Positions 29,583 through 48,735 of a stretch of DNA of 64,000 nucleotides are shown here, in pieces. The number at the start of each line of letters is the position of its first letter. Position 1 is the first letter of the stretch. A model generated the notes under the pieces. It saw only the letters and a program-made list of their open reading frames with translations, was not told the origin of the DNA and made no database searches. Location: contig CBDCXV010000010.1 in NCBI GenBank assembly GCA_965223905.1, positions 1,664,001 to 1,728,000 on the forward strand. Direction: 5' to 3'. A program made the position numbers and the translations under genes. The DNA is from Candidatus Latescibacterota bacterium. GTDB taxonomy: Bacteria; Latescibacterota; UBA2968; UBA8231.

Positions 29583-30722
29583 ATGGAGCCGCGCTACATC
29601 AGGGACCATATCGAAGCGGATCTCGCGAATCGGATGGTGTTCATCGGCGGGCCGCGCCAGGTTGGAAAAACCACCCTTGCCCTTTCTCTGCTCGGACCTA
29701 GCAGGAACGAGTCGTCCCCCGCTTACCTCAACTGGGACGTGCTTTCCGATCGCGAGGATATCCTGGCGGAACGCCTGCCCTCCGGCCAGCCCCGCATCAT
29801 TTTCGACGAGATCCACAAGTTCGCGCGCTGGCGAAACCTGGTGAAGGGGCTGTTCGACAAGAACAGAACCTCCATTTCCTTCATCGTCGCCGGATCGGCG
29901 CGTCTCGACTACTACCGCAAGGGCGGGGATTCCCTGCAGGGGCGGTATCACTATTTCCGGCTGCATCCTTTCACGGCGACGGAGTACGGGACGGCTCCGG
30001 ATCAGGCGCTGACGGAGCAGCTGCTCAGGTTCGGCGGTTTCCCCGAGCCTTTTCTGAGGGGGGAGGTGCGCTTTCATCGCCGCTGGCAGCGCGAGCATTC
30101 CTCGAGAATCATCCACGAGGACCTCCGCGACCTGGAGAACGTCAGGGAGATTTCGATGCTGGATCTCCTGCTGTCTCACCTGCCGGCGTGCGTGGGCTCC
30201 CCGCTTTCCGTCAACAGCCTCGCCAGGCTGCTGCAGGCGTCGCACGAATCCGTCGAACGCTGGCTGGCGATCTTCGAAAGGATGTACCTCTGCTACCGCA
30301 TTCCACCGTTCGGGGGGAAGAGAATCAGGGCGGTCCGCAAGGAAAGGAAGCTCTACTTCTGGGACTGGTCGCGCGTTCCCGACCGCGGCGCCCGGTTCGA
30401 GAACATGGTGGCCGGCCACCTCCTCAAATACTGCCACTTCGTCGAGGACACGGAAGGATACGGGATGGAGCTGCGCTTCATTCGCGATACCGACAAGCGC
30501 GAGGTGGACTTCGTCGTTCTCCGCGACGGAGCTGCCGAGTTCGCCGTCGAGTGCAAGAGCGGCGAGCAGAGCACCTCCCCGGCATGCCGGTACTTCAGGG
30601 AGCGGACGGATATCCCGCGGTTCTACCAGGTTCACCTGGGCGAGAGGGACTTCGGCAACGAAAAAACCGGTACGCGGGTACTGCCGTTCTCCACGTTCTG
30701 CCGCGAAGCCGGCCTGCCCTGA
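29583..30722 (+). CDS. AAA_14 ATPase with DUF4143
   Basis: GPRQVGKT, IFDEIH, GSA, SLQGR, KLYFWD, FENMV, EVDFVV...ECK. Confidence 0.88.
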   Translation: MEPRYIRDHIEADLANRMVFIGGPRQVGKTTLALSLLGPSRNESSPAYLNWDVLSDREDILAERLPSGQPRIIFDEIHKFARWRNLVKGLFDKNRTSISFIVAGSARLDYYRKGGDSLQGRYHYFRLHPFTATEYGTAPDQALTEQLLRFGGFPEPFLRGEVRFHRRWQREHSSRIIHEDLRDLENVREISMLDLLLSHLPACVGSPLSVNSLARLLQASHESVERWLAIFERMYLCYRIPPFGGKRIRAVRKERKLYFWDWSRVPDRGARFENMVAGHLLKYCHFVEDTEGYGMELRFIRDTDKREVDFVVLRDGAAEFAVECKSGEQSTSPACRYFRERTDIPRFYQVHLGERDFGNEKTGTRVLPFSTFCREAGLP

Positions 30723-35707: not shown

Positions 35708-36607
35708 TCAGGTCAGCGCCGGGGGGCGAAAGACCTCTTTCTCATGCCACTTCACGAACCTGGGGTCCGGGCCAAGGCAGGTGTTCCGGGGCGCTCGAAG
35801 CGGACTGTCGTGGTAGTCGAGGAACCAGCGGACCGGGGCGCTGAGGCCGTGGACCTCACTTGAAACAAGCACCCTGTAGCCCCCCTCTACCGGTTCCAGA
35901 CCGAGCGCGCCACGGTCGAAGGCCTTGTGGTGCAGCCCGCACAACGCCAGTCCGTTCGCGACCTCGTCGGGACCTCCGGCGGCGTGCCACTTGATGTGCG
36001 CCGCTTCCAGACCGATCAACTCATTCCCAAGTCGCACATCGAAGTCACAGACGGCGCAGCGGCGCTGGTACTCCCGCAGAACCTCGTCGCGGAAGGCCGG
36101 GTTGCGCCGCGGGGGTAGTGGCGCGTCCCGCACCGCCCAGGTTCGCGGGATTCCGACTGCATCGCGGATCTCGTCATGCAGCGATTCCGGGAAGTGCCCG
36201 TCCAGTAGTCTTTGCGACGCCTCTCTCGCCAGCTCCGGCCGGTTGCTGAGCAGGTCGTACAGCGGGGCTGGAAAACCGCCCTGCACTCCCCGCTCGCGAA
36301 GATCACGTACGCGAAGATCTCCGCTCGCGGTTCGGGACAAGGTTTCGCTCCCGGGGGTCTCCCAAAGTTCGTCGGCGGGAAGCCTGCCGAACGGGAACTC
36401 CGGACGCGGCTTGCGGGGTGGACCGAAATTTTTCAGGAGGTCCGTGAGCCGGGTCTCGATCTGCTGGTAGGAGGCAAGGCGTTCCTCCATGCGGAGGACG
36501 CGTCCGAGCGCCAACAACAGCAGCAGGGGCTTGTGCGGCGCGCGTTCACCGCGTCGCTGCCAGACGTTGATGCGCTCGATCTTCTCGAGGAACTCGTCCC
36601 GGTCCAT
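35708..36607 (-). CDS. Sulfur-binding-domain HNH endonuclease (phosphorothioate-DNA-binding type)
   Basis: RAPHKPLLLL and PEFPFGRL...W (SBD-like); CAVC...LEAAHIKWH...NGLALCGLHHKAFDRG. Confidence 0.8.
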   Translation of the reverse strand: MDRDEFLEKIERINVWQRRGERAPHKPLLLLLALGRVLRMEERLASYQQIETRLTDLLKNFGPPRKPRPEFPFGRLPADELWETPGSETLSRTASGDLRVRDLRERGVQGGFPAPLYDLLSNRPELAREASQRLLDGHFPESLHDEIRDAVGIPRTWAVRDAPLPPRRNPAFRDEVLREYQRRCAVCDFDVRLGNELIGLEAAHIKWHAAGGPDEVANGLALCGLHHKAFDRGALGLEPVEGGYRVLVSSEVHGLSAPVRWFLDYHDSPLRAPRNTCLGPDPRFVKWHEKEVFRPPALT

Positions 36608-36646
36608 AGATCAGAAAGAGGCCGAGATCCGGGCGAACCGTCAAGG

Positions 36647-37462
36647 TTACAAATGACACACGGCACAGCCTTCCGCTAAATCCGGGGCTGGGATCTCCTC
36701 CCGCTCCGGAAGCTCGGCAATTCTCAGTAGCGGCCGTCCGTCGACCCAGGTATAGCCCCGGTCTCCGGCGCTATCCTGCTCATACCCCATTGCTTTTTCG
36801 AAAAGATCGGGGTGCACCTCCTTGAGGTTCTGCCATTCCCCGACCTGCTGGTAAAAACAGAAGTAACAGCCGGAACGGGACCGCCAGCGGTAGTAGCCGG
36901 GCAACCCGATGCCTGATTCGGTCAGAATTCGCTTGATGTCCTCAAGGATCATCCCCGCGTCCTTGAAAGGGTACACGGGCAGGATGTTCGGCCGCTGGGA
37001 GATCACCGGTGGCTTCTTCGATTGGTACCCCTCCCTGTCCTCGTCACCGCGAATGCCGATGTAGCTGAACGCGTGGCTGTCGCCGACGAACCGCTCGAAC
37101 GGCTGAATCTTCAGCACTCGCGTGCACCATCTCGAACGCGGATTCGGCAGGAATCCGCCGTAGAGCTCGTTCAGGTAGACGTCGAAGGGATTGCGCCCGG
37201 GCTTCCTCGCGACTTTGAGGTCGTCGAGAGCATTGAGCCGCTGCACCTCCACGCCCAGGAGTGCTTCCAGCCGTTCGAGGTACTCGTAGGTTTCGGGCAA
37301 TTCGCAGCCGGTATCGCAGAACACGTACTCCGCGGGGATCTCAGGGAAATTCTGGCGCATGTACAGGGCGAGCGCGGTAGAGTCCTTGCCGCCGGAGATA
37401 CTGACGATGTGGCGAATGTTCTTGTCGGACAGGCTTTCAAGCGCCTCCTGCATACTAGCCAT
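36647..37462 (-). CDS. sspD: PAPS-reductase family protein (SspD/DndC-like)
   Basis: SISGGKDS, FCDTG.ELPETY, RWCTRVLK, GIRGDE, RSGCYFC, terminal CAVCHL. Confidence 0.8.
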   Translation of the reverse strand: MASMQEALESLSDKNIRHIVSISGGKDSTALALYMRQNFPEIPAEYVFCDTGCELPETYEYLERLEALLGVEVQRLNALDDLKVARKPGRNPFDVYLNELYGGFLPNPRSRWCTRVLKIQPFERFVGDSHAFSYIGIRGDEDREGYQSKKPPVISQRPNILPVYPFKDAGMILEDIKRILTESGIGLPGYYRWRSRSGCYFCFYQQVGEWQNLKEVHPDLFEKAMGYEQDSAGDRGYTWVDGRPLLRIAELPEREEIPAPDLAEGCAVCHL

Positions 37463-40400
37463 CGTGGGGTTCCTTCGTCCTTATTTGCCGAATTGCGGAC
37501 AGCCTCCTCTCCGCTTCCACTTCGCCGACCAGGTCGACAAGCTTGGCGAACAGTGCGCCAATACGGCCTTCGAGGAATTTCGACAAGCCGTGAGCGGCGC
37601 TGCTGTCCTCCAACAGGCCGCTGAGTTCGAGGGCCGACTCCTCGATCTGCTGCACTGTCGCCTGTAGTTCACGCTCGAAATGCGCGATGGTACTGTCGTC
37701 CCACCTGGCGAGGGGCTTACCGACGAGTAACGTGGCGAGGGAGTCCGCGAGCTTCTCGTCGGACCTGTACTTCATTTGCATGATCTTCAGCATGCTGGTG
37801 GTCGTGCTCGCCGGTCCCATCCTCTCAACGAAGCTCTGGGAAAAACAGCCGGCCCATTCCCTGGCCACGACCTGCAAGTTCTCTGCCTGATCGCGATCCC
37901 CCAGGCGTATCGCCCGGCGTACAGCCGCTCCTGCCTGTTGCGCGTACGTGCGTGTGACATCCATCAGCTCCTGCTTCGCCGCCTCTATGCCTTCGAGGGC
38001 TTCACTGGTCGCGCGGTCTTCCCCTCCTAGACGGGGCAGATCCTGCAGGATGAGGCGGACGGGGTCGCCCCCTTTGCGGATGAACTGCTGCAGTTTCTGG
38101 CCGGCTGGAGTCAGCTGGCGGGTGGTCAGGGCCGCTACCGGCAGCTGTGCCTTCCAGGCCTCCAGTGCGTCGTGACAGAGCCGGACCAGGTCGGCCTCCG
38201 GGGCTTCGTACTCCGGACCGGCGGTGAAGATGCGGTGCAGGCCGCGCAGGTACTTTTCGCTCTCGTCATCCAGCTCCAGCACGCTGACGCGGAAACGGTC
38301 CGGCTCTCGGCACAGGCTCTCGATGACGGAAGGCAGGATGTCTGCCACGTAGGCCCCGTCCTTCATCAGGGACAGGGCGCTTGGGAACGCCTTGAGTCCG
38401 GCGGCAAGCAGGATCGGCAGCAAACCTTCCCGTACCCCATGGGGCGGCTCCATCAACTTGTGCAGAAGCAGGCGAGGGTCCTTCGGCGTCGTGCTCGGCT
38501 CAGTAAGGAAGACCTCGACTTCCCTCCACACCTGCTTCAGGCCGGGGTCCTCGAGCTCTTCCGGATCCGCATATCGCCAGCGGCCGTTGTCCTGCCGGTA
38601 GAGCCCGGTGTGAAGCAGCACGCACCGGAACATCGACGAATCAGGGAAGTTCCCCTCGATGCCTAAGCCTTCCATGCCAGACCGTTCCAGGATCCCGAGC
38701 ATCAGCTTCTTGCGGGCGTTCACCACGACCGCGGAAGGACGGTGCCTGACGATCATCTCGTTGTTGATGCGGGGGCAGTGCCCGAACACTTCCTCCATGA
38801 TGTTCGACAGCGCCGTCCGCAGGCCGCGGGGGGAGTCGGCTCGCCGCATCGGCTTACCCTTGTGGAACCACCGCGGCCCATCGAAACCGGGCCAGACCAG
38901 CCGGTCCAAGAGCTGTTGCAGATGGCCTTGGGCGTCGTCGGTCATTTGCTGCAGCTCCGGACCGACGAGAGGATCGGCCCCGACAAGCTCGCTGTCGGTC
39001 TGCATCCTCAGCAGGCACCAGACCTCCAGGGCGGCCTCGCGGATCGGCAGCGGTTCCCGGGGCAGGGCCACCACGATCCGGTCGGCGTTCAGGTCCGACC
39101 GAACCGCCTGCTCGGCCTGTGAGATCTCCTCGTGGCTTTCCGCCAGGACGTACAGCACCTCTCCATCCGTGCCGGGATCGAGCCGCCTCAGGTACTGGTC
39201 CTGTCTAAGGGATTCGGGAAGGGTCGCTACGCACTCGTAGCGGCCGGCCAGGTATCTTCGGACGCAGCGCTTGGCGTTGTACTCGACGGGGCGCCAGGCG
39301 GGCGGCCTGGCTTCCTCGCTGAGGAACTTCAGGTCGTCGAACTGCTCTTCCTGCCTTCGCTTCTCCTCCTCAAGCCTGCCCCGCAAGTCGACGTCCGTGC
39401 CGTGCCATACGGCCACCTGGTCGCTGTGGCGGCGGTGCAGCAGCAACTTGCGATCGACCAGTTTCTCGACGACTTCCTCTCCCGCATCGCTCGTGGTGTA
39501 TCCCCTGAGCGCGAATTGCAGCAGGCCGAGGCCGGCGCGGGAGCGCTCGCCGCTCGTACCGAGACTGAGCAGGCAGGCTGCCTTCAGAGCCTTTGCCTCG
39601 TTTTCACCAGAGACCTTCGTCAGGGCGCTTTCCGTCTCGAGCCACTGACGGTAGGTGCCGCCAACCGATGTATCCGCCCTCATCACCGGGGCGAAGTAGT
39701 CGTACAGGGAGGCCGGTCCAACCTCCCCGTCCATATCCGCCGCGTAGAGGAAGCTGAACAGGGTGCGCTCGTTCTGCGCCACGCGGGCTGCCAGGCGAGG
39801 CAGCAGGTACAGCGTCACAGGTTCGAGGGGATATGCCCGGTGAAGCACCTGCTGGATCTCCGTGAGGGTGGCTTCTCCGAACAACCCATGAGTCTTGCAT
39901 TCACGGGCAGCCCTGAGCGCAAGGGGCCCCGCCAGCTTCTTCCCGCCTCTGCGGGAAGCCACTACCTCCGAGACGAGCCGGTAGATCTCCTTGCTCTCAT
40001 CGACGTACTGCAGGGTGCGGAAGCGGCCTTCGATCTTGGTCCACTCCGAACGGACCGACTGGGTCATGTTCCCCGCGTACTGGAGCAGACTCTGATGGAG
40101 GAACAGGCCCATCGTCGCCGGCACCCCCCTGGTGCGGCTGACGAACTCCGCCAGCACCTGGATTTCCGCCAGTGCGGAAGTCCGCCCCTCGCTGAGCAGG
40201 GCTTCGAGGTGCCGTCCGAACTCGTCCCACAGCAGGACGACCCGGTCGCACCCGCACACCGCGGCCTTCTTCTGCAGGGCGGCCAGCACGTTATCCAACC
40301 CGTTCTGCCCCCCGGTATTCAACCCTTCGATGCTCTTGGTCCGGCGCCCGAGCTTCAACCGTCTCATGCTGCGGATCGCGGCATCCCGCAACGCCTCGGC

Positions 40401-40793
40401 CACGTTCGGGCAGTACCCGTGGAGCGCCAGGACAAACCCTCGTTTTTCTGCGCTCCTTCCCCTTCTCCTCACGGAAAGAGCCAGTTCCGAACTGACCGCT
40501 TCCAGGCGATCGGTTACTTCACCCAGGGAATCGGCGGCAGCCGGCCTGTTCTCAATCACGTGCAGGGCGTAGGTCGCCGTCAGCGATTTGCCGCTTCCAT
40601 ACGGGGCCACGACGAAATAGGCGCGCTCGTTCTCTTGGCCGAAGAGGGCCTTGAGCAGGGGGACGGTCTTGGCAGTGGGACGAAAGTGGTCGATCCGCTC
40701 CGGCTCGTCGGCGTCGTAGACGAGGTTGATGGAACGCAGGAATGCGTCCTGCGAGACAGGCTCGCCCACCTCGGTTTTCCTTTTACGCTGCAT
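37455..40793 (-). CDS. sspC: Large ATPase (SspC-like)
   Basis: FLRSINL, Walker A APYGSGKS, Walker B LLWDEFGRHLE, EWTKIEGRF, AQNERTLFSFL; 1112 aa. Confidence 0.75.
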   Translation of the reverse strand: MQRKRKTEVGEPVSQDAFLRSINLVYDADEPERIDHFRPTAKTVPLLKALFGQENERAYFVVAPYGSGKSLTATYALHVIENRPAAADSLGEVTDRLEAVSSELALSVRRRGRSAEKRGFVLALHGYCPNVAEALRDAAIRSMRRLKLGRRTKSIEGLNTGGQNGLDNVLAALQKKAAVCGCDRVVLLWDEFGRHLEALLSEGRTSALAEIQVLAEFVSRTRGVPATMGLFLHQSLLQYAGNMTQSVRSEWTKIEGRFRTLQYVDESKEIYRLVSEVVASRRGGKKLAGPLALRAARECKTHGLFGEATLTEIQQVLHRAYPLEPVTLYLLPRLAARVAQNERTLFSFLYAADMDGEVGPASLYDYFAPVMRADTSVGGTYRQWLETESALTKVSGENEAKALKAACLLSLGTSGERSRAGLGLLQFALRGYTTSDAGEEVVEKLVDRKLLLHRRHSDQVAVWHGTDVDLRGRLEEEKRRQEEQFDDLKFLSEEARPPAWRPVEYNAKRCVRRYLAGRYECVATLPESLRQDQYLRRLDPGTDGEVLYVLAESHEEISQAEQAVRSDLNADRIVVALPREPLPIREAALEVWCLLRMQTDSELVGADPLVGPELQQMTDDAQGHLQQLLDRLVWPGFDGPRWFHKGKPMRRADSPRGLRTALSNIMEEVFGHCPRINNEMIVRHRPSAVVVNARKKLMLGILERSGMEGLGIEGNFPDSSMFRCVLLHTGLYRQDNGRWRYADPEELEDPGLKQVWREVEVFLTEPSTTPKDPRLLLHKLMEPPHGVREGLLPILLAAGLKAFPSALSLMKDGAYVADILPSVIESLCREPDRFRVSVLELDDESEKYLRGLHRIFTAGPEYEAPEADLVRLCHDALEAWKAQLPVAALTTRQLTPAGQKLQQFIRKGGDPVRLILQDLPRLGGEDRATSEALEGIEAAKQELMDVTRTYAQQAGAAVRRAIRLGDRDQAENLQVVAREWAGCFSQSFVERMGPASTTTSMLKIMQMKYRSDEKLADSLATLLVGKPLARWDDSTIAHFERELQATVQQIEESALELSGLLEDSSAAHGLSKFLEGRIGALFAKLVDLVGEVEAERRLSAIRQIRTKEPHDG

Positions 40794-41219
40794 GGAGACC
40801 CTTCATCTGCAGGAACCGTTGCAGGCCCTCGACGCACACCGCCTTGTCGAAGCGCTGCAGCTTGAAGCTGTTGAAGAACCAATCCCAGGTGGTCGCGTGC
40901 TCCTCGCTGCTGATCAGGTTCACGTGAAGCGCTCACCAGGTGCCTATGTCGGTGAAGTAGGGGTCGCGCTCCCAGACGAGATTGCCCAAGGGGGTAGGTT
41001 GCAACGGGGCGCTCTTTCGAGGCCGCCTTCCCGAGACTTGCTCGCACAGGCCGGTCGCCTGAAGCCATACCGGATCGACTTGGCCATGTTGCGGCCCACG
41101 CCGAGCCAGTCGGCAACGTGCTCGCCGATGAGTTTCTCGGGCTCTTCGACGACGAGCTTCAACCCTTTGTGCAGCCACCCTTCCCGAACGGGGAAGGTCT
41201 CGTGTCCACCGAACCTCAT
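40783..41219 (-). pseudogene. sspB: DUF4007 protein (SspB-like), disrupted and truncated
   Basis: MRFGGHETFPVREGWLHKG, LGVGRNMAKSIRYWL, DPYF; frameshift ~41066, in-frame TGA 40933-35, ends after ~145 codons. Confidence 0.8.
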
Positions 41220-42399
41220 CCGGCCACCTCCGAAAGCTCCATGCGGCTTGTGTCTCTCCAGTCCGAAAACGCCCTGATCCGGGCGACCACTTCCGCTACG
41301 GTCTCGGCGGCAGCGGCCACCTCCTCCTCGCTGTTCAGCACCGACATGCTGAAGCGGACGCTTGCGTACGCCTCCTCTTCGGTCAGTGCCATGGCCCGCA
41401 GCACGTGCGACGGCTCGGGCCGGTGGTTGGTGCATGCCGAACTCTGCGAACACCGGATCCCGCGCTGGTCCAACCGGGCTACCATTGCCTGTCCGTCCAC
41501 GCCGTCAAAGAGCAGGTTCGTCGTGTTGCACACGCGGGTGGCGCGCCCCCCGTTCACCGACACGCCGGCGCACCGGTCCACGATCTCGCTTTCGAACAGA
41601 TCGCGCAGCCTGCCGAGCTTGGTGATCGTCTCGGGGAGAGAGCCTGCACGGATGCCGGCAGCACATCCCATGCCGGCGATGCCCGGGACGTTCTCGGTTC
41701 CGGCCCGCAGGCCCGACTCCTGATCGCCGCCGTCCAGGAGCCCCCTGACCTCGACGCTGCCGCGCAGGTACAGGGCTCCTGTACCGGGCGGAGCGTGGAA
41801 CTTGTGCCCTGCAATCGACGCGAAGTCTATCGGCAGTTCCCGCAGATTCACCGGCAGCTTACCGACTGCCTGGGCCGCGTCAGTGTGGAAGGGCATTCCG
41901 GCTTCCGAGCAGATCCGCCCTAATTCCTCAACCGGTTGGGCGACCCCGGTCTCGCTGTTCACCCACTGAATCGATACCAGGGCGGCTTCCCCGGCGACCG
42001 CTTCCCGCAGGTCCTCCGAATCCACGATCCCGCTTCTGCCGACAGGAAGCAGCACGACTTCCGTTCCTTCACCCTCGGTCCTTTCGAGGGCGGCGAGGAC
42101 TGAGGAGTGTTCGACTGCGGTCGAGACGATCCTTTTTCCCGGCCCGGAGAAGCTGCGGATGACGGTGTTGTTCGCCTCGGTGGCGCCGCTGGTGAAGATG
42201 ATGGAGTCGGGCTGGCATCCGAGAAGTGAGGCCAGCGACGACCTGGCGTTGCGCAGCTGCCCGCGCGCACGGTCGCCGGCGGCATGGCTGCTGGAGGGAT
42301 TGCCGAACGTCCCCCCCATCGCATTCAACACGGCGGCGCGAACCTCGGGCAGTGCCTGAGTCGTCGCGTTGTTGTCGAGATAGATCTCGGAAGGTCCAT
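41216..42399 (-). CDS. sspA: Cysteine desulfurase (SspA/DndA/IscS-like); ATG at 42399 is one base out of frame
   Basis: IYLDNNATT, GNPSS, FTSGATEANN, HTDAAQAVGK, GHKFHAP, RAGTEN, SQSSACT. Confidence 0.85.
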
Positions 42400-42627: not shown

Positions 42628-42802
42628 TTCCTGGTGAAAGAGCACCGGGGGAGTAGCCGGTTCCGCTCGGTCGTGGATCTGTTCCCTTAAGGTCGCAGTA
42701 ACGGCGGCTATTGGATACGGTTAATATACTGAACAAAAGTGCACACTGGCAAGGTCGGGTGCAACAGATTCTGCCAGCACTTCGGGCCCTCTGGAACGGT
42801 CG

Positions 42803-44311
42803 TCAGTCAAGCATGGTGGCCGCCAAACGGCCCATTCGCATGCAAACACGCCGGTATAGAAGGCTGAAGCGATCGCGCCAGCCCGCTCTCTTCTCCTTGA
42901 GGAATGGATACGTCGGCCGCCCGCGCTCGCCGAGGCCGAACCGCCTGTGGGTGAACTCGCAACTATCCACACAACGATCCGGATGTTCGAGCCACTGCGT
43001 CTCGGCTTCCACGAACCTGTGTTCGAAGGACCACTGGCCCGCAGTCGCTCCGCAGTCGTGCCACCAATCCTGGCCGACCAAATAGCGGACGAGGATGCGC
43101 ATCTCCTCGGCAGCTACAACATTGCAGAATGCGATCGTGTTCTGGCCGGGCTCTGGGCCGTCGTTCACTTCATCGTTGATGTACCGTCCTCTGCGTCTTA
43201 TGCCTAACCGCTCGTCTCTCGCGTCACTACTGGTGTACTGACCTCGGCAGCGCAGGCAGCGCATGTCCGGCCCCACCAAGTGGACGTTCCACTTTGCGGA
43301 GAGCAACCGCTCCCTCGATTCCACGAGAACGCCACCATCGATCAACGGAAGGCAGTTCGAATACGCGATGTGGTTAAGAACCTCGCGCGCCTCCGGATTG
43401 TCGACGCAGCATAGGATGATGTCCGCGTCGGCCGTGTGTCGATATGCCCGTTCGGTGCGTATCGACAGTGGCACAGCCCGAATGACCGGCCTCCCGGCCG
43501 TGGCCACCTTTCGAAGGTGTGCCGCCGCTACCTCCGCCTTTGGCAGCCCTAGGCAGTGCCGGTCGGCGTAGATCAAGCGATCCAGGTTCCTTTCCTCGAC
43601 CCAGTCTGAATCAACGACGGTGATTTCCTCGAATCCTGTGCGCGTTAGACACTCCAGCACGATGGAGCCGACACTTCCCGCTCCCACAACGCAGATGTGC
43701 GTACGAGCCAGCCGTGCCTGCGCTTCCACTCCCCAGCAATCCAACGTCCGCACCAAGCTTTGTCGGCGGACATAGGGAGGGTAGGCGTCCGGTGGGGAAT
43801 CGGCACTCGTGGATCGGGCTCCGACGCGCCGCACGTCCGTGCAGTGAACGGGCTGGACGCCGCGCCCCGATTCCCGCCAGAACCGTGCGCTCCAGCAACC
43901 GTCTGAGCCCATTGTCATCCCCAACAGAGGCAGTCGAGTCTCGCGGACGAACGGGGCGATCACGTTGCGCTCTGTATCGTGGTCCAAATCGCTCATCCCC
44001 TGCCAGCCGGATCCGGGATGGCTGTGCAGCACGGCTACCCCCGCCTCCGCCTTAAGCGCGCGGTCGAGCACTCGGTTCAGGTAGCCGCTATGCACTGTCA
44101 CATTCCCGTGCAGATCTCGATCCCCATCTTCAGGAAGGACGACTTCCCCGAGGATTCCCGTATAGCGGTTGAAACCGTCCCCCCGGCGCCACAGGGCCAA
44201 ACAAGCCTCCTCCTGGCAATGGCCATGTCGGAATCCACTCAGCAGGTGGTCTGCGAGTTCAGGGTGAAGTGCTTCCCGTATCACGACCCGATGGATGGGG
44301 ATTATATACAT
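42803..44311 (-). CDS. JAB-peptidase + ThiF (E1-like) fusion protein
   Basis: JAB: QEEAC...VLHSHPG...MSDLD; E1: VVGAGSVG, VDSDWVEERNLDRL, PKAEV, CVDN..AR, LIDGG, CLRC. Confidence 0.82.
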   Translation of the reverse strand: MYIIPIHRVVIREALHPELADHLLSGFRHGHCQEEACLALWRRGDGFNRYTGILGEVVLPEDGDRDLHGNVTVHSGYLNRVLDRALKAEAGVAVLHSHPGSGWQGMSDLDHDTERNVIAPFVRETRLPLLGMTMGSDGCWSARFWRESGRGVQPVHCTDVRRVGARSTSADSPPDAYPPYVRRQSLVRTLDCWGVEAQARLARTHICVVGAGSVGSIVLECLTRTGFEEITVVDSDWVEERNLDRLIYADRHCLGLPKAEVAAAHLRKVATAGRPVIRAVPLSIRTERAYRHTADADIILCCVDNPEAREVLNHIAYSNCLPLIDGGVLVESRERLLSAKWNVHLVGPDMRCLRCRGQYTSSDARDERLGIRRRGRYINDEVNDGPEPGQNTIAFCNVVAAEEMRILVRYLVGQDWWHDCGATAGQWSFEHRFVEAETQWLEHPDRCVDSCEFTHRRFGLGERGRPTYPFLKEKRAGWRDRFSLLYRRVCMRMGRLAATMLD

Positions 44312-44480
44312 AATTCAGCAAGTCTAATTTTAGTAATCTCATCCGCGAAATTAAAGAAAATCTGGTATAATATAATAGAGAAAATACCAGAGAGAAGGAC
44401 ATCCCAGGTCCTCAAGTGTTTAGCCTCGAACACACGGCAGCATGCCATATTGGCACCGTGGGTCTGGGTCGATACGCGCA

Positions 44481-45368
44481 TCATTTTCCGGATCTGCATA
44501 TCGTGGAGGCATGAAGGTCCAAGGTTACCGTTTTGATGACGTTTTCATATACCCTAATCCCATCAGCAAAAACGAGCTCCCGAGAATCGGGAGACCATGC
44601 TATACTATTGCTCCCCAGTTCCCACTTGTGTATAAGCTTCTTGTTGGAGCCATCCAGGTCCATTGTCCATACGCTTTTCTCGTATCCTGCGATCTTATCG
44701 TCCGGGAAATCGCTGTAGTCGTCCCGATTAAATTCTTCCCCACGAACAATAACTGCCATCCTTTTCCCGTTAGGAGCTACGTCAGAATATGTGCCTTTGC
44801 TTATGAAGTGCGACGTATCTCCATCGGTTATCCAGACCTCCGAGCTTCTTGTCCAGTATATGATGCGTCCACCGGGAGCCCATGTAATCCCGAAAATTTG
44901 CCTGCTGTCTAATACATCATTAGGGATACGTTTGACAACGCCACCTTCCAGAGTTATTACAATAATTTCCTGGGCTCCTCCTCCTAAGAATAGAAAAGCC
45001 AATAGATCATCTCCAACAGGAGACCATTCCACAGATCTTAATGGTCCGTCACTCCCGCTATTAAAGATTGGCCATTCTGGCCTTTCGGAACCATCTAAGC
45101 TCCTCCAAGTAACTCCCCAATCATCAAAGCCCATTTCACTTGCGTTAAAAGCATAGGCCATCCTTGTTCCATCCGGAGATAGATCTCCCCGATAGACCAG
45201 GTTATAGTTGCCCAATTTTGTAAAGTGAGAATTGTCTGGATCAACTACACCAAATCCGTATTTTTTGTTTCCCCTTTCCACTTTCCAGGAGAAATCGAAA
45301 TAAACCTGTCCCCAGACGGAAGACGCTACTATCAGAATAATAACTGACACTCCGGCAAGTCTTTGCAT
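44481..45368 (-). CDS. TolB-like (PD40) beta-propeller secreted protein, probably C-terminally truncated
   Basis: Signal peptide; LSPDGTRMAY, WSPVGD, WAPGG, VAPNGKR, WSPDSREL repeats. Confidence 0.72.
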   Translation of the reverse strand: MQRLAGVSVIILIVASSVWGQVYFDFSWKVERGNKKYGFGVVDPDNSHFTKLGNYNLVYRGDLSPDGTRMAYAFNASEMGFDDWGVTWRSLDGSERPEWPIFNSGSDGPLRSVEWSPVGDDLLAFLFLGGGAQEIIVITLEGGVVKRIPNDVLDSRQIFGITWAPGGRIIYWTRSSEVWITDGDTSHFISKGTYSDVAPNGKRMAVIVRGEEFNRDDYSDFPDDKIAGYEKSVWTMDLDGSNKKLIHKWELGSNSIAWSPDSRELVFADGIRVYENVIKTVTLDLHASTICRSGK

Positions 45369-45369
45369 T

Positions 45370-46380
45370 TCACTTACTCTTCACCTCTCCCCAGGTTGCA
45401 GGAGAAACCCTCGTAGTTTTGTCTCCCGAAGGCGACCAAGCTATTGAGTTTATGTACTCGGGAAAATCAATTATATCTCGTACGATGCCATCCAGAGAAA
45501 CAGCCTTAATCTCTCTAATTGTAATAAAAGCAACCTCCCTGGAATCAGGAGACCAAGAAATGCGGAACTCTTGTAAGGGTACGTATCCTCTGAATTGATG
45601 TACCAGTTTTCTGTTGCTGCCATCCATATCCATTACCCATATTTCCAAATCAGTTGGACTACTTCCTGTATATCCTGGAGCAATTAAAAAAGCTACTTTC
45701 GTTTCATCCGGAGATACGTCTGGGCTTCTTCCTTCTCCCAATGACTGTGAAAAATCACCGTCTGTAATCCACATTTCGCCTGACTCACTGTATATGAATT
45801 GTCCATCTGGAGCCCAATCGCAATACTTGTAAGTTCCATACTTTGCTTCAGTGGAAATTTCTTGTAGTATGATCCCTCGTCTTATGTCGCTAAATGGATC
45901 TACTACAATTAATTCAGGAGGTTCAGAAGGTTGAATATCGGCAAATAAGAGTATCTTTGTCCCGTCAGGTGACCATCTTGGAGAATAAATACGTGGAGTA
46001 TCTGACGATCCCTGATAGAAAACATATTTCCATGATTGATACGGGTCGTCATTGTCATGAATGTTCCCCCATTTTGGGAGGTAGTCCCAACGGTTTGACA
46101 TTGTGAGGCCATATGATGTTCCATAGCTTTTAACTGAACTGTAGACATCTATGATGTAATTACCGTCAGGAGATAGATCAAATGCCTCACCGGTCCAATA
46201 TCCTATAAGGGTAGAGGGATCAGTTCCCTTAGAATCTGTGTAGTAACTTGCTCCCTCTTCTGCAATAAAAGCTATCTCGTCTGCTCCGGATGCCACTATC
46301 CCGAGGCAGGAAAGAACAACTATTATGGTAATCATATGGCCGCTCCTTAGTGATGTAAGCAGACGTATTTCCGCGTTCAC
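45370..46380 (-). CDS. TolB-like (PD40) beta-propeller secreted protein with PATWGEVK tail
   Basis: LSPDG, WSPDG, WAPDG, VSPDE, WSPDS, WSPSG repeats; start uncertain. Confidence 0.75.
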   Translation of the reverse strand: MNAEIRLLTSLRSGHMITIIVVLSCLGIVASGADEIAFIAEEGASYYTDSKGTDPSTLIGYWTGEAFDLSPDGNYIIDVYSSVKSYGTSYGLTMSNRWDYLPKWGNIHDNDDPYQSWKYVFYQGSSDTPRIYSPRWSPDGTKILLFADIQPSEPPELIVVDPFSDIRRGIILQEISTEAKYGTYKYCDWAPDGQFIYSESGEMWITDGDFSQSLGEGRSPDVSPDETKVAFLIAPGYTGSSPTDLEIWVMDMDGSNRKLVHQFRGYVPLQEFRISWSPDSREVAFITIREIKAVSLDGIVRDIIDFPEYINSIAWSPSGDKTTRVSPATWGEVKSK

Positions 46381-46535
46381 TTCAATGATGACTTTATCTG
46401 TCCCCAGGTTGCAGGACGAACACTCGTTGCCCCACTGCCTGGAATCCAGTCAACGTCCCATACAACATCAGTCTCAAACAGAAACACAGAGTCCGTTCCG
46501 TCCGCATCTACCATGTAAAGACCGCGCCCAGTGAT
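46377..46535 (-). pseudogene. C-terminal fragment of a third propeller paralog
   Basis: Manual translation ITGRGLYMVDADGTDSVFLFETDVVWDVDWIPGSGATSVRPATWGQIKSSLK*. Confidence 0.6.
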
Positions 46536-46809
46536 TCAGGACGATCTGAATTAACCTCAAGCGCGACTTCCAGACTGAATTGTCAACCAGGGTCCAGAAC
46601 AATTCCACCCGTTCGTAGGGAAATCCCAAAGCCTTCGGCCTTATCGAGGATGGAATCGTCATTGAACCTCAGATGCCTGACCCCTCCTGGATCTTGTTAG
46701 CTGTCCGGGTGGAAAAGTCGGAATCGGAAGGACCTGGGGGTTAGAAATGTGCGTGAGAGGCGTGTGGTGTTTCGCCCGCGAGGAAATCAAGCCTGTCAGG
46801 GAATTACCG

Positions 46810-47076
46810 TTAAGAACGGAGAGCTCTGCCATATGCATCTCCAAACTCTTCCAGAGACTCGCGAAGTTTGCTAATGTCCCGAATCACAGCCTGATGCTTG
46901 TTCCGGAAAAGAGAAATCTCGTCCGCGTCTGAAAGTGTGCGAAGTGAAGGAAAATCCGATAGCCTGGGCCTATGAGTAGTCTCAAAGACCGTCTTTTCCC
47001 TTGATAGCCAGTTTATTTGATCTTGAAGTTTTTGGTCGAATATCTCAATCGTGCGTTCAATCTCTTCATGATTCAT
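46810..47076 (-). CDS. Hypothetical protein
   Basis: 88-aa ORF with GGAGGA upstream. Confidence 0.45.
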   Translation of the reverse strand: MNHEEIERTIEIFDQKLQDQINWLSREKTVFETTHRPRLSDFPSLRTLSDADEISLFRNKHQAVIRDISKLRESLEEFGDAYGRALRS

Positions 47077-47135
47077 AGTAAGAACGAATCCTCCGGTTCA
47101 AGCGCCTTTTAAATTTAAATTCTCTTCTTCCCTGA

Positions 47136-47930
47136 TCAGTCCTGCAAGCCGTCGTTTAGGTCAGGAGAATAGTTATCAGAAATCACTCGGAAAATGTAAT
47201 CCGCCAAGATAAGCATATTTAAGCTATGCTTATACGTAGAGTAGGGCACTAAACCATGCACCACAGCATGGCGATTCGGAACAGAATCCCTGATATATCC
47301 TTCCCTATTACTGTCAGTTACTCCTTCATAAATATGCTCCACAAGGCGTCCAAAAAGGATCAGTCCATGCGCTTTTTTTGGCAGAAAATCCTCTAACGAT
47401 CCACGATTGGCAAACGATTCAAGGAGCTTCTTCGAGCCAATACGACCTGCCTTGTCCTCAAAAACACACTCCCTGAGTATTCGTTCCATTTCAGGAAACA
47501 ACAATCGACAGACACATCGATGAAGACCTTCTCTATGAGCGATCAAGGCTTCCCGGAAGGTCTCTTTGCTCTCTTCTGAGATAGGACAGGTTACTAATCG
47601 TAGCTCCATCTCTTGCTGAATACGGTTCCAGTTCTTCCTATAGAACTCGGACAAACGACGATCCAATAGAGAGGTATCTCCGGCACAAGCTTCTACAAGC
47701 TGGATGGAAACAGAATCGTAAGGCAGCCAACCTGTTGCATCTACTGAATCCATGAAATCTGAGTACCTTTGAAAATGGCTTAAATGCCTAACGAAGAGGC
47801 AGTCTTTTCCCCCGTCTCTTTCATTCAGCAATCCGGCCATGCCTTCATTTCCCTCCTTTCCACCTATATGGCCCCCGGGATGATCGAGATCGAGTTGTGA
47901 GGCCAAGATGTTCATCACTTCTCCTCCCAC
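47136..47930 (-). CDS. Hypothetical protein with RxxxxH (HEPN-like) motif
   Basis: ALIAHREG..., C-terminal VPNRHAVVHG. Confidence 0.5.
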   Translation of the reverse strand: MGGEVMNILASQLDLDHPGGHIGGKEGNEGMAGLLNERDGGKDCLFVRHLSHFQRYSDFMDSVDATGWLPYDSVSIQLVEACAGDTSLLDRRLSEFYRKNWNRIQQEMELRLVTCPISEESKETFREALIAHREGLHRCVCRLLFPEMERILRECVFEDKAGRIGSKKLLESFANRGSLEDFLPKKAHGLILFGRLVEHIYEGVTDSNREGYIRDSVPNRHAVVHGLVPYSTYKHSLNMLILADYIFRVISDNYSPDLNDGLQD

Positions 47931-48308
47931 CGGCGCGCCAGGAAGGCGATCCCGGAACCGGCTTCCCTTCTCTGTCTACTATCCGCTACTGTTTACCGAA
48001 ACTTGTACCACGCTAAATCCATTCTAACCCATTCTTTCCTGCAGGCAACGGCAAGGTAAGGGCAGACGGCTGTTACCGCTACCGGCTCGATGAACTCTGC
48101 CACGGGTTCCCCCCTCCAATCCCGATCCTACCGGACCCGAATACCCTTTCAATACCCCGCCCAGGCAAGCTGTCTCAGGGTCGTTTTCTCTACCCCTTCG
48201 TCGGTGAAGGAGGTCCTAACCGAAAAAACGTTCCTGATTGCCGGTCAGGTCCGCGTTTTTCGAAAAAATCTGGTATAACATAATGGAAAGGTATCTAACC
48301 CCGATGGA

Positions 48309-48735
48309 TCAACGCGCCCTCCAGATCCTACGGAGATGTCGGTCCAGGTAGGTTCTCAGGCTCTTTCCGTCCGGCGTCTCGATCTGGTCCCAGAAGTCCC
48401 CCCGACGGGGCACTGATCGCCATCCAACTGAGCCCGTCTTCCCCTTCATAGTGGTTGACGACTCCCCTCGGCTGCGACCCCTTGACCTGCTCTGCCAGGA
48501 CATCATCCGGCGGCGACAAGTACAGCCAGTGTGGCGCAACTTCGGGCCATTCTCCTTCGTCTGGGTGCAGGGCGAGCCCCAACGTCACGGTCTCTCCAGC
48601 GCGACTGCCGTCCTCGATCTGATAGTCGAAGCGGACACCTTCTGCACCGCCTTGGTCCTTTGGCGCCGAGAACGACTCGTGCCGGTAGCCCAGCCCGGCA
48701 AGCTCCGCCGCCATTCGCTCCGAGTTCTGGCTCAT
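48309..48735 (-). CDS. Prokaryotic E2-like protein, frameshift at ~48400
   Basis: VRFDYQIEDGSRAGETVTLGL...EWPEVAPHWLYLSPP...WMAISAP/SGDFW...YLDRHLRRIW; removing one base in a C6 run joins the frames; originally coupled to JAB-E1. Confidence 0.6.

Follow-up and report, generated by a model that had tools for sequence, protein, structure and literature searches.

The 64,000-nucleotide window analysed here (Candidatus Latescibacterota bacterium, assembly GCA_965223905.1, contig CBDCXV010000010.1, positions 1,664,001 to 1,728,000) contains an Ssp-type operon for phosphorothioate (PT) modification of DNA, the writer, followed directly by a gene for a nuclease with a sulfur-binding domain (SBD) and an HNH domain, the reader. 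All five genes lie co-directionally on the minus strand between positions 35708 and 42399 (window coordinates are used throughout), in the order sspA-sspB-sspC-sspD-SBD-HNH nuclease. In this genome the writer is broken: sspB is destroyed and the start of sspA is frameshifted. We consider it probable that the nuclease is an ordinary type IV enzyme cutting PT-DNA, which sits beside a decaying Ssp operon in a host that is itself free of PT. In the following, fetched loci are labelled L, genomes G and sequencing runs X, each with a number.

The damage to sspB is extensive. Only 51 codons can be read before the frame shifts at 41066/41067, a stop follows after about 145 codons, and of the 293 positions of the SspB profile the pieces recognised by PADLOC span no more than 1-141. 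Block alignment with the intact sspB of the congeneric locus L086 reveals a shortfall of 474 bp, with a junction at approximately 40800-40804. The T missing at the frameshift site is present in L006 and L086, and the equivalent of the in-frame TGA at 40933-40935 is TGG in L007 and L086. In sspA, no in-frame ATG, GTG or TTG precedes the conserved N-terminus, and the ATG at 42399, the sole one upstream, does not share the frame of the body; the L006 gene reads in frame from its start (M-E-P-S-E-I-Y-L-D-N-N). In total, the window copy of the operon bears four separate lesions.

Both small lesions are shared with contigs of run X1, whereas runs X3, X4 and X7, from two further studies and related strains, have an extra base after 41066 and after 42394. 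The small lesions therefore belong to the strain of the window. Assembly error was considered as a source of the frameshifts and is countered by the X1 contigs at both sites, with the reservation that X1 is possibly the source sample and so not fully independent. One X1 contig joins 37464 to 40717 with 14 other letters between, skipping 3252 nt and with them nearly all of sspC, which points to a co-occurring strain or relative without sspC in the same sample.

Of the four components of an SspABCD system, SspC and SspD are present and intact, SspB is not intact and SspA lacks a usable start. SspB is the nickase that picks out the target strand and opens it. It is reported to be essential for single-strand PT formation, and mutation of sspA to have abolished PT in a model Vibrio (PMC7188994). 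Searches of the window's own genome (7.9 Mb, 93.6% complete) yielded no further DUF4007/sspB or SspD gene, and neither DndC nor a DndB-family gene. With sspB destroyed, the start of sspA out of frame and no further copy of sspB found, the host presumably no longer writes PT, and its own DNA would be sulfur-free. An initial annotation of this stretch, made from the sequence alone, had described a PT writer set (its call for expressing 'repaired' genes implies that damage had been seen) and had found its linkage to a PT reader paradoxical. The set is not a working one, and the paradox is resolved here because the writer has decayed while the reader is intact. Ssp calls based on hidden Markov model (HMM) matches alone would misscore this genome as PT-modifying.

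The nuclease matches the NCBIfam family NF045808, 'phosphorothioated DNA-binding restriction endonuclease', over its full length at 299.6 bits (cut-off 180); its residues 6-294 align to positions 3-284 of the 284-position profile. The SBD that the initial annotation had proposed for its N-terminus is borne out by sequence and by predicted fold. In a phmmer search of the PDB, the N-terminal 140 residues align to the SBDs of SprMcrA (7cc9, 5.4e-9) and ScoMcrA (5zmm, 2.2e-8). An AlphaFold2 model built from 42 relatives (mean predicted local distance difference test score 81, predicted template modelling score 0.72) was compared with known structures by Foldseek, and the ten best matches were all ScoMcrA or SprMcrA SBD structures. 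The best of them, the ScoMcrA SBD 5zmo_A, has an E-value of 1.5e-8, a template modelling (TM) score of 0.82 on the target and a root-mean-square deviation of 2.2 Å over 156 columns. The SBD model also matched the SBD of Hga (8h0l, E 7e-5).

The sulfur pocket of ScoMcrA is described as consisting of H116, R117 (K in most homologues), Y164 and P165 (PMC6224610), and the equivalents in the window nuclease are H25, K26, F71 and P72. Among the 42 relatives K26, P72, F73 and W82 are invariant, and lid position 71, an F in the window, is occupied by F in 20 of them and by Y in 12. The HNH histidines and asparagine and the zinc cysteines (C184, C187, H204, N218, C223, H226 and H227) are likewise invariant. 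Against its two closest relatives, the nuclease has a ratio of nonsynonymous to synonymous divergence (dN/dS) of 0.12, over a synonymous divergence (dS) of 0.40-1.0. Judged by its sequence and modelled fold, it is an intact two-domain SBD-HNH enzyme, for which PT binding and cleavage are predicted. It shares the N-terminal sulfur-binding winged helix and C-terminal HNH domain of the EcoWI-type enzymes (NF045808), and its modelled SBD has the fold and the H-K and aromatic-P pocket motifs of the solved SprMcrA and ScoMcrA domains. Unlike ScoMcrA, it has no SRA domain. It has its SBD in common with Hga of Hahella ganghwensis, in which the nuclease domain is of the different PD-(D/E)XK type.

By analogy with EcoWI, SprMcrA and ScoMcrA, the winged helix of the SBD would accommodate the Rp sulfur of a PT linkage in the H25/K26/F71/P72 pocket, and the zinc-bound HNH domain would then cut close by. 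Phage or plasmid DNA that had been PT-marked in a neighbour bearing Ssp or Dnd genes would be cleaved on entry. PT writers are common in the phylum of the window, with sspD in 44 of 168 genomes. A foreign PT motif was among the nuclease targets suggested by the initial annotation, and is the one that we prefer; the abortive-infection role also suggested there found no support.

Alternatively, the whole cluster, nuclease included, might be a relic on its way out, in which the nuclease has no current function. The four lesions of the window operon would be in keeping with this, as would a frameshift in the nuclease next to sspD in the congeneric G104 and truncated nuclease copies in G134, G146, G135, G082 and G138. 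However, the window nuclease has an intact frame with all catalytic and pocket residues, its dN/dS is low over considerable divergence, and the nuclease is intact in five of the six sspD-linked loci described below. We therefore regard the relic explanation as quite improbable.

To place the locus among its relatives, homologues of the nuclease were collected (3080 at E <= 0.001 among 7689 candidates), and a scan of a genome collection confirmed 364 encoding loci, of which the best 80, at 48-91% identity, were examined. All of these relatives come from metagenome-assembled genomes, in which small frameshifts may be assembly errors. A simple picker of open reading frames (ORFs) was unreliable in high-GC loci (for example for sspD and the nuclease in L087), and presence was taken from tblastn or HMM matches. 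In 9 of these best 80 of 364 loci, the nuclease has SspC and SspD no more than 10 kb away, and according to PADLOC L052, L064 and L080 have a full sspB-sspC-sspD set with sspA alongside, divergent from the nuclease. Dnd writers accompany two of the 80 (L076, with complete dndBCDE and dndA; L009, with dndA and a short dndC), and L066 and L040 retain other PT-system pieces. No PT-system genes were found in the other 67. The nuclease occurs as two tandem copies in L064 and L084. Among the Ssp-bearing loci, sspA is split in L080, and sspB lies in two frames in L084 and L016. The second nuclease copy of L064 (L064:10978-11853) carries H227R, and the nuclease of L016 (L016:10001-10894) carries H204Y and H227Q; as the SBD pocket is kept in both, these proteins may be PT binders without cleavage, to judge from their residues.

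The survey of 168 Candidatus Latescibacterota genomes yielded SspD in 44, DUF4007 in 45 and the nuclease in 18 (15 above cut-off). As the initial annotation had anticipated, the HNH gene recurs next to sspD homologues. In 6 of the 44 sspD genomes (G000, G103, G104, G167, G118 and G125) it comes directly downstream of sspD in the same orientation; the G125 pair spans a contig break, and in G118, which has a different Ssp subtype, they are 89 nt apart. The two genes are linked in six of the nine genomes of this phylum that have both. In a sample of 401 genomes of a second phylum, taken around the genome of L052, 20 have the nuclease and 8 have SspD; four have both, and in three of these the two genes lie within 7 kb of each other. 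Co-occurrence of nuclease and SspD exceeds chance in the two samples (p 0.02 and 0.0003; p 0.03 after two genomes brought in by the author are dropped), with the qualification that kin are not independent. Between genera, the dS of the nuclease (1.0) matches that of sspD (0.92), which indicates that the pair was already linked in an ancestor still holding sspB and sspC. The linkage of reader and writer is real and old.

Such a linkage raises the question of whether the SBD-HNH protein is, or was, the cognate restriction partner of the Ssp writer, with host PT acting as a licence or self mark, as for SspE; the nuclease of the window would then have been orphaned when the system broke. Its operon-like placement (39 nt after sspD here, 89 nt after it in G118, and divergent from sspB in L052, L064 and L080), the frequent linkage, the excess co-occurrence and the matching dS, which suggests that the two genes travelled together, would all accord with a partnership. 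There is also room for such a partner, as 2,211 of 2,678 sspBCD clusters are reported to lack both sspE and sspFGH (Wang et al., 2021, PMC8092258), and a similar role has been proposed for proteins with SBD-type winged helix-turn-helix (wHTH), SAD and HNH domains in Dnd loci (PMC10853773). On the other side, intact-writer loci often hold a separate candidate effector pair (a protein of about 430 amino acids without family match and a DndB-family protein), the same nuclease clade also occurs beside the Dnd writers of L076 and L009 and stands alone in 67 of the 80 loci, and the characterised SBD nucleases described in PMC6224610, PMC7461809 and PMC10602919 all cut, rather than spare, PT-DNA. The state of the linked writers also speaks against it. 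We regard a cognate partnership as unlikely on balance.

In the window phylum, all six nuclease-linked loci have an incomplete writer from which sspB or sspC is gone, through at least four separate deletions, and yet five of the six keep an intact nuclease. The sspB deletions of the window and of G103 differ and are not nested. In G104 a 3.1-kb stretch is deleted from within sspC, and the adjacent nuclease gene is frameshifted. The sspC deletion of G167 is common to G159 and G164, both of which are without the nuclease, and G167 has gained an insert resembling an insertion sequence. In G118 and G125 sspA-sspB has been lost, and a DUF4007 gene is absent from both genomes altogether. Within one genus, the deletions of the window, L006 and L086 are three distinct events; a common origin of the sspB truncation in the window and L006 was considered and rejected, as block alignment against L086 resolves two non-nested deletions.

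The other 38 SspD genomes serve for comparison, less G123 and G032, which were dropped for contigs that are too short. Of the 36 remaining genomes without a linked nuclease, 30 have a full-length sspB match 3.3-3.6 kb from sspD, one is ambiguous (G061) and five are incomplete (G037, G071, G075, G159 and G164); the 30 were judged complete by this sspB-sspD spacing, and sspC was read only in fetched loci. Incomplete writers are thus found in 6/6 loci with and 5/36 without a linked nuclease (Fisher p 8.8e-5, or roughly 4.7e-4 per event, both overstated by shared ancestry). Conversely, in G134, G146 and G135 the sspB-sspC-sspD set looks complete, and all that is found of the nuclease is fragments at other sites. 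In the first two of these, the sspA-like gene upstream (L105:1446-2627 and L106:1438-2619) has one or more internal stops in its tblastn match, which may mark a pseudogene or be an artefact of the alignment.

Since the writer is incomplete in all six linked loci of this phylum, antagonism or independence of reader and writer is favoured over the licensing by self PT that the initial annotation had raised. Repeated writer loss in this lineage fits either a mild conflict between writer and reader or a nuclease to which the writer makes no difference. If the nuclease acted weakly on single-strand marks, writer and reader could coexist, and writer loss would still be favoured over time. Of the accounts of this pattern it is the one that we prefer, as a speculation. 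Of the CpsCA motif of Ssp systems, it is reported that the SprMcrA SBD does not bind it (PMC7470945, Table 1) and that Hga, there called the first PT-dependent enzyme to recognise it, restricts an Ssp-type cluster 10-fold, as opposed to 1000-fold for a double-strand PT writer (PMC10602919).

A broader proposal, which we put forward only tentatively, is that Ssp writers and SBD-HNH readers are inherited together as a mildly antagonistic cassette, in which the reader favours writer loss over time, so that a lineage ceases to mark its own DNA and instead cuts foreign DNA that is marked. Coexistence would be possible if single-strand CpsCA marks are poor substrates, and the expected footprint would be independent writer deletions beside an intact reader, together with reader fragments alongside intact writers. 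A weaker corollary would be that readers beside intact writers tend to have a non-aromatic lid or a dead HNH domain. Lid residues beside intact writers are indeed A, A, N, H, A, A, H and N, as opposed to F or Y in broken-writer loci; the strict form of the rule was rejected because the nucleases of L099, which adjoins an intact writer, and L100, which shares a genome with one, have Y. We retain it as a weak tendency.

Several observations weigh against the interpretation that we favour, an ordinary PT-cutting enzyme beside a decaying writer. In the second phylum, an intact writer and an intact nuclease are adjacent in L052, L064 and L099, and are present unlinked in G367; antagonism is therefore not general, and a strict incompatibility of writer and reader, which we also considered, is rejected by the same cases. 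The writer genes present a mutational target about six times that of the nuclease, so that random decay would also break the writer first. Excess co-occurrence is expected from functional partnership as well. The lid residue of the window is F rather than Y, with R75 in place of A168 of ScoMcrA, and the Y164F exchange is reported to have cost the ScoMcrA SBD 65% of its binding (PMC6224610). Finally, the frames of sspC, sspD and the body of sspA have stayed open, and comparison of the window with L006 gives them dN/dS values of 0.05-0.20, so that either the loss of the writer is recent or these genes retain some function.

The remaining function might be that of a reduced unit able to work without SspB, such as a cassette of SspC, SspD and the nuclease in which the ATPase and the pyrophosphatase serve the nuclease or some other sulfur chemistry. 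G118 and G125 consist of exactly sspC-sspD-nuclease, bounded by a TonB-receptor gene; sspC is an intact frame of 1112 codons in both the window and L006; and SspD is strongly constrained (dN/dS 0.03-0.06) even where sspC is gone. Across genera, SspD is 94-98% identical in protein to its relatives (dN/dS 0.03-0.08), compared with 75-91% for SspA, SspC and the nuclease; the dN/dS of sspC is 0.15-0.19. However, G104 and G167 have lost sspC and not sspB, so that no single reduced set is conserved, and comparison with sister genomes in which sspA-sspB is still in place shows that a deletion of about 2 kb accounts for the form seen in G118 and G125. We know of no activity of SspC or SspD without SspB. 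Of the explanations weighed here, we hold a reduced unit to be the least probable. A different remnant is seen in L090, L094, L007 and L086, where sspA, sspB and sspD are full-length after loss of sspC, and SspD has a dN/dS of 0.05-0.06 over a dS of 0.24-0.48. This suggests a role for SspA, SspB and SspD without SspC, or a supply of SspC from elsewhere.

Close relatives differ in what occupies the position after sspD (L090:7312-8736, L094:9022-10101). This position holds a 474-amino-acid HNH_4-motif protein in G164, a 359-amino-acid NOV_C-domain protein in G159, a pair of an unknown and a DndB-like protein in G166 and G094, and the SBD-HNH nuclease in the window. The pair follows many Ssp operons (L091:7557-10054, L095:6209-8675, L099:15090-17621, L080:593-3205, L079:12663-15858, L060:12568-15065) and consists of a 420-460-amino-acid protein without family match and a 350-470-amino-acid DndB-family (PF14072) protein. 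The former has 608 amino acids in L079, and is replaced in L060 by a second DndB-like protein. PADLOC SspE models did not match the pair at the thresholds used, and the pair may represent an effector or regulator module of Ssp systems that has yet to be described.

Viewed against known systems, the parts of the locus are ordinary members of known families. With SspABCD-SspE and SspABCD-SspFGH it has in common the four ssp gene families in a tight co-directional cluster, of which intact sister operons exist in the window phylum; it differs in that the order A-B-C-D is followed by the SBD-HNH gene, in the damage to sspB and sspA, and in the lack of sspE or sspFGH nearby. The closest published parallel to the linkage is in Dnd loci, where Krishnan et al. 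(2024) report a wHTH+SAD+HNH protein in 698 taxa and propose it as an alternative restriction component (PMC10853773). There too a PT-reading HNH protein lies immediately downstream of PT-writing genes, but the writer is DndABCDE and the reader has three domains, wHTH(SBD), SAD(SRA) and HNH, whereas the window has a broken Ssp writer and a nuclease without SAD/SRA. Lutz et al. (2020) report that less than 3.6% of predicted PT-dependent enzymes lie near dnd clusters, and offer mutated clusters, inactive enzymes or differing specificity as explanations (PMC7461809); the window nuclease, in contrast, lies directly after sspD. A full-text search of the literature found no paper on an SBD-HNH enzyme paired with sspABCD, though Table S4 of PMC7461809 and Table S2 of PMC8092258 may list cases. 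The linkage is a variation on a published Dnd theme, to which the comparison of loci adds a pattern of repeated writer loss.

Most sspBCD clusters lack a known restriction partner, and PT-reading nucleases are expected to avoid PT writers (PMC8092258, PMC7461809). The locus and its relatives identify an SBD-HNH clade with both a physical and an evolutionary link to Ssp writers, and with repeated writer loss in one phylum. If this pattern survives phylogenetic correction, it would constitute a natural record of conflict between opposite uses of one DNA mark. Intact pairs of the L052, L064 and L099 types, together with the broken pairs, provide a set for testing the reader as partner or antagonist.

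The features of the locus are collected in Table 1. The identities and place of the five genes given by the initial annotation are upheld by PADLOC, Pfam and NCBIfam, as are the overlaps of the ssp genes (sspA/sspB through ATGA, the sspB stop on the sspC start, and sspC/sspD by 8 nt) and the nuclease gene shortly after them. The Pfam scan returned PAPS_reduct, DUF4007, Aminotran_5 and HNH_2, and no Pfam family for SspC.

Table 1. Features of the ssp-nuclease locus in window coordinates.
Feature	Coordinates	Strand	Evidence
SBD-HNH nuclease gene, intact, 299 aa (amino acids)	35708..36607	-	NF045808 match
Sulfur-binding domain (SBD), residues 1-156, predicted pocket H25, K26, F71, P72, R75	36140..36607	-	phmmer vs PDB, Foldseek
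HNH catalytic core, residues 184-237	35897..36058	-	Pfam HNH_2, 40.9 bits
Spacer, 39 nt, sspD stop to nuclease start	36608..36646	-	sequence read
sspD, PAPS-reductase-like ATP pyrophosphatase, 271 aa, intact	36647..37462	-	PADLOC SspD 301.4 bits; Pfam PAPS_reduct
sspC, BrxC-like ATPase, 1112 aa, intact open frame	37455..40793	-	PADLOC SspC 519.2 bits, residues 17-1052
sspB (DUF4007 nickase) remnant, pseudogene	40783..41219	-	PADLOC SspB pieces, 93.8 + 115.6 bits
sspB -1 frameshift, TAT/GG vs TATTGG in relatives	41066..41067	-	three-frame translation
sspB in-frame TGA, TGG in relatives	40933..40935	-	three-frame translation, profile match
sspA (cysteine desulfurase) body, open, without in-frame start	41216..42382	-	PADLOC SspA 404.1 bits; Aminotran_5 224.3 bits
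sspA start region, ATG at 42399 out of frame via 1-nt loss	42383..42399	-	three-frame translation
Sigma-70-like promoter match upstream of sspA, sole one in region	42723..42752	-	10/12 matches

The promoter match is weak, with one site found where 0.6 would be expected. No terminator-like site was found in the spacer between sspD and the nuclease gene, and the count for the region is below that of shuffled sequences. PADLOC found no SspE or SspFGH match in the five flanking ORFs scanned, in agreement with the initial annotation, and no DndB-like gene was found beside the operon either. The genome has six DUF262 genes, the nearest approximately 73 kb from the locus. G+C content is even over the cluster and its flanks, and the entire stretch including the flanks is syntenic with the closest relative, L006, which argues against a fresh insertion. 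Five kb beyond the nuclease, amid glycoside-hydrolase genes, a 379-amino-acid AAA_14 + DUF4143 ATPase gene (29583-30722) shows no visible link to the locus. Upstream of sspA lies a 502-amino-acid ThiF/E1-like gene (42803-44311) with PADLOC E1-E2 (Cap2-like) matches, and beside it a low-GC stretch (44287-48311, 43-48% G+C) with ORFs of PD40/WD40 repeats. Given this Cap2-like gene and its neighbours, the ssp locus lies in a neighbourhood of defence genes.

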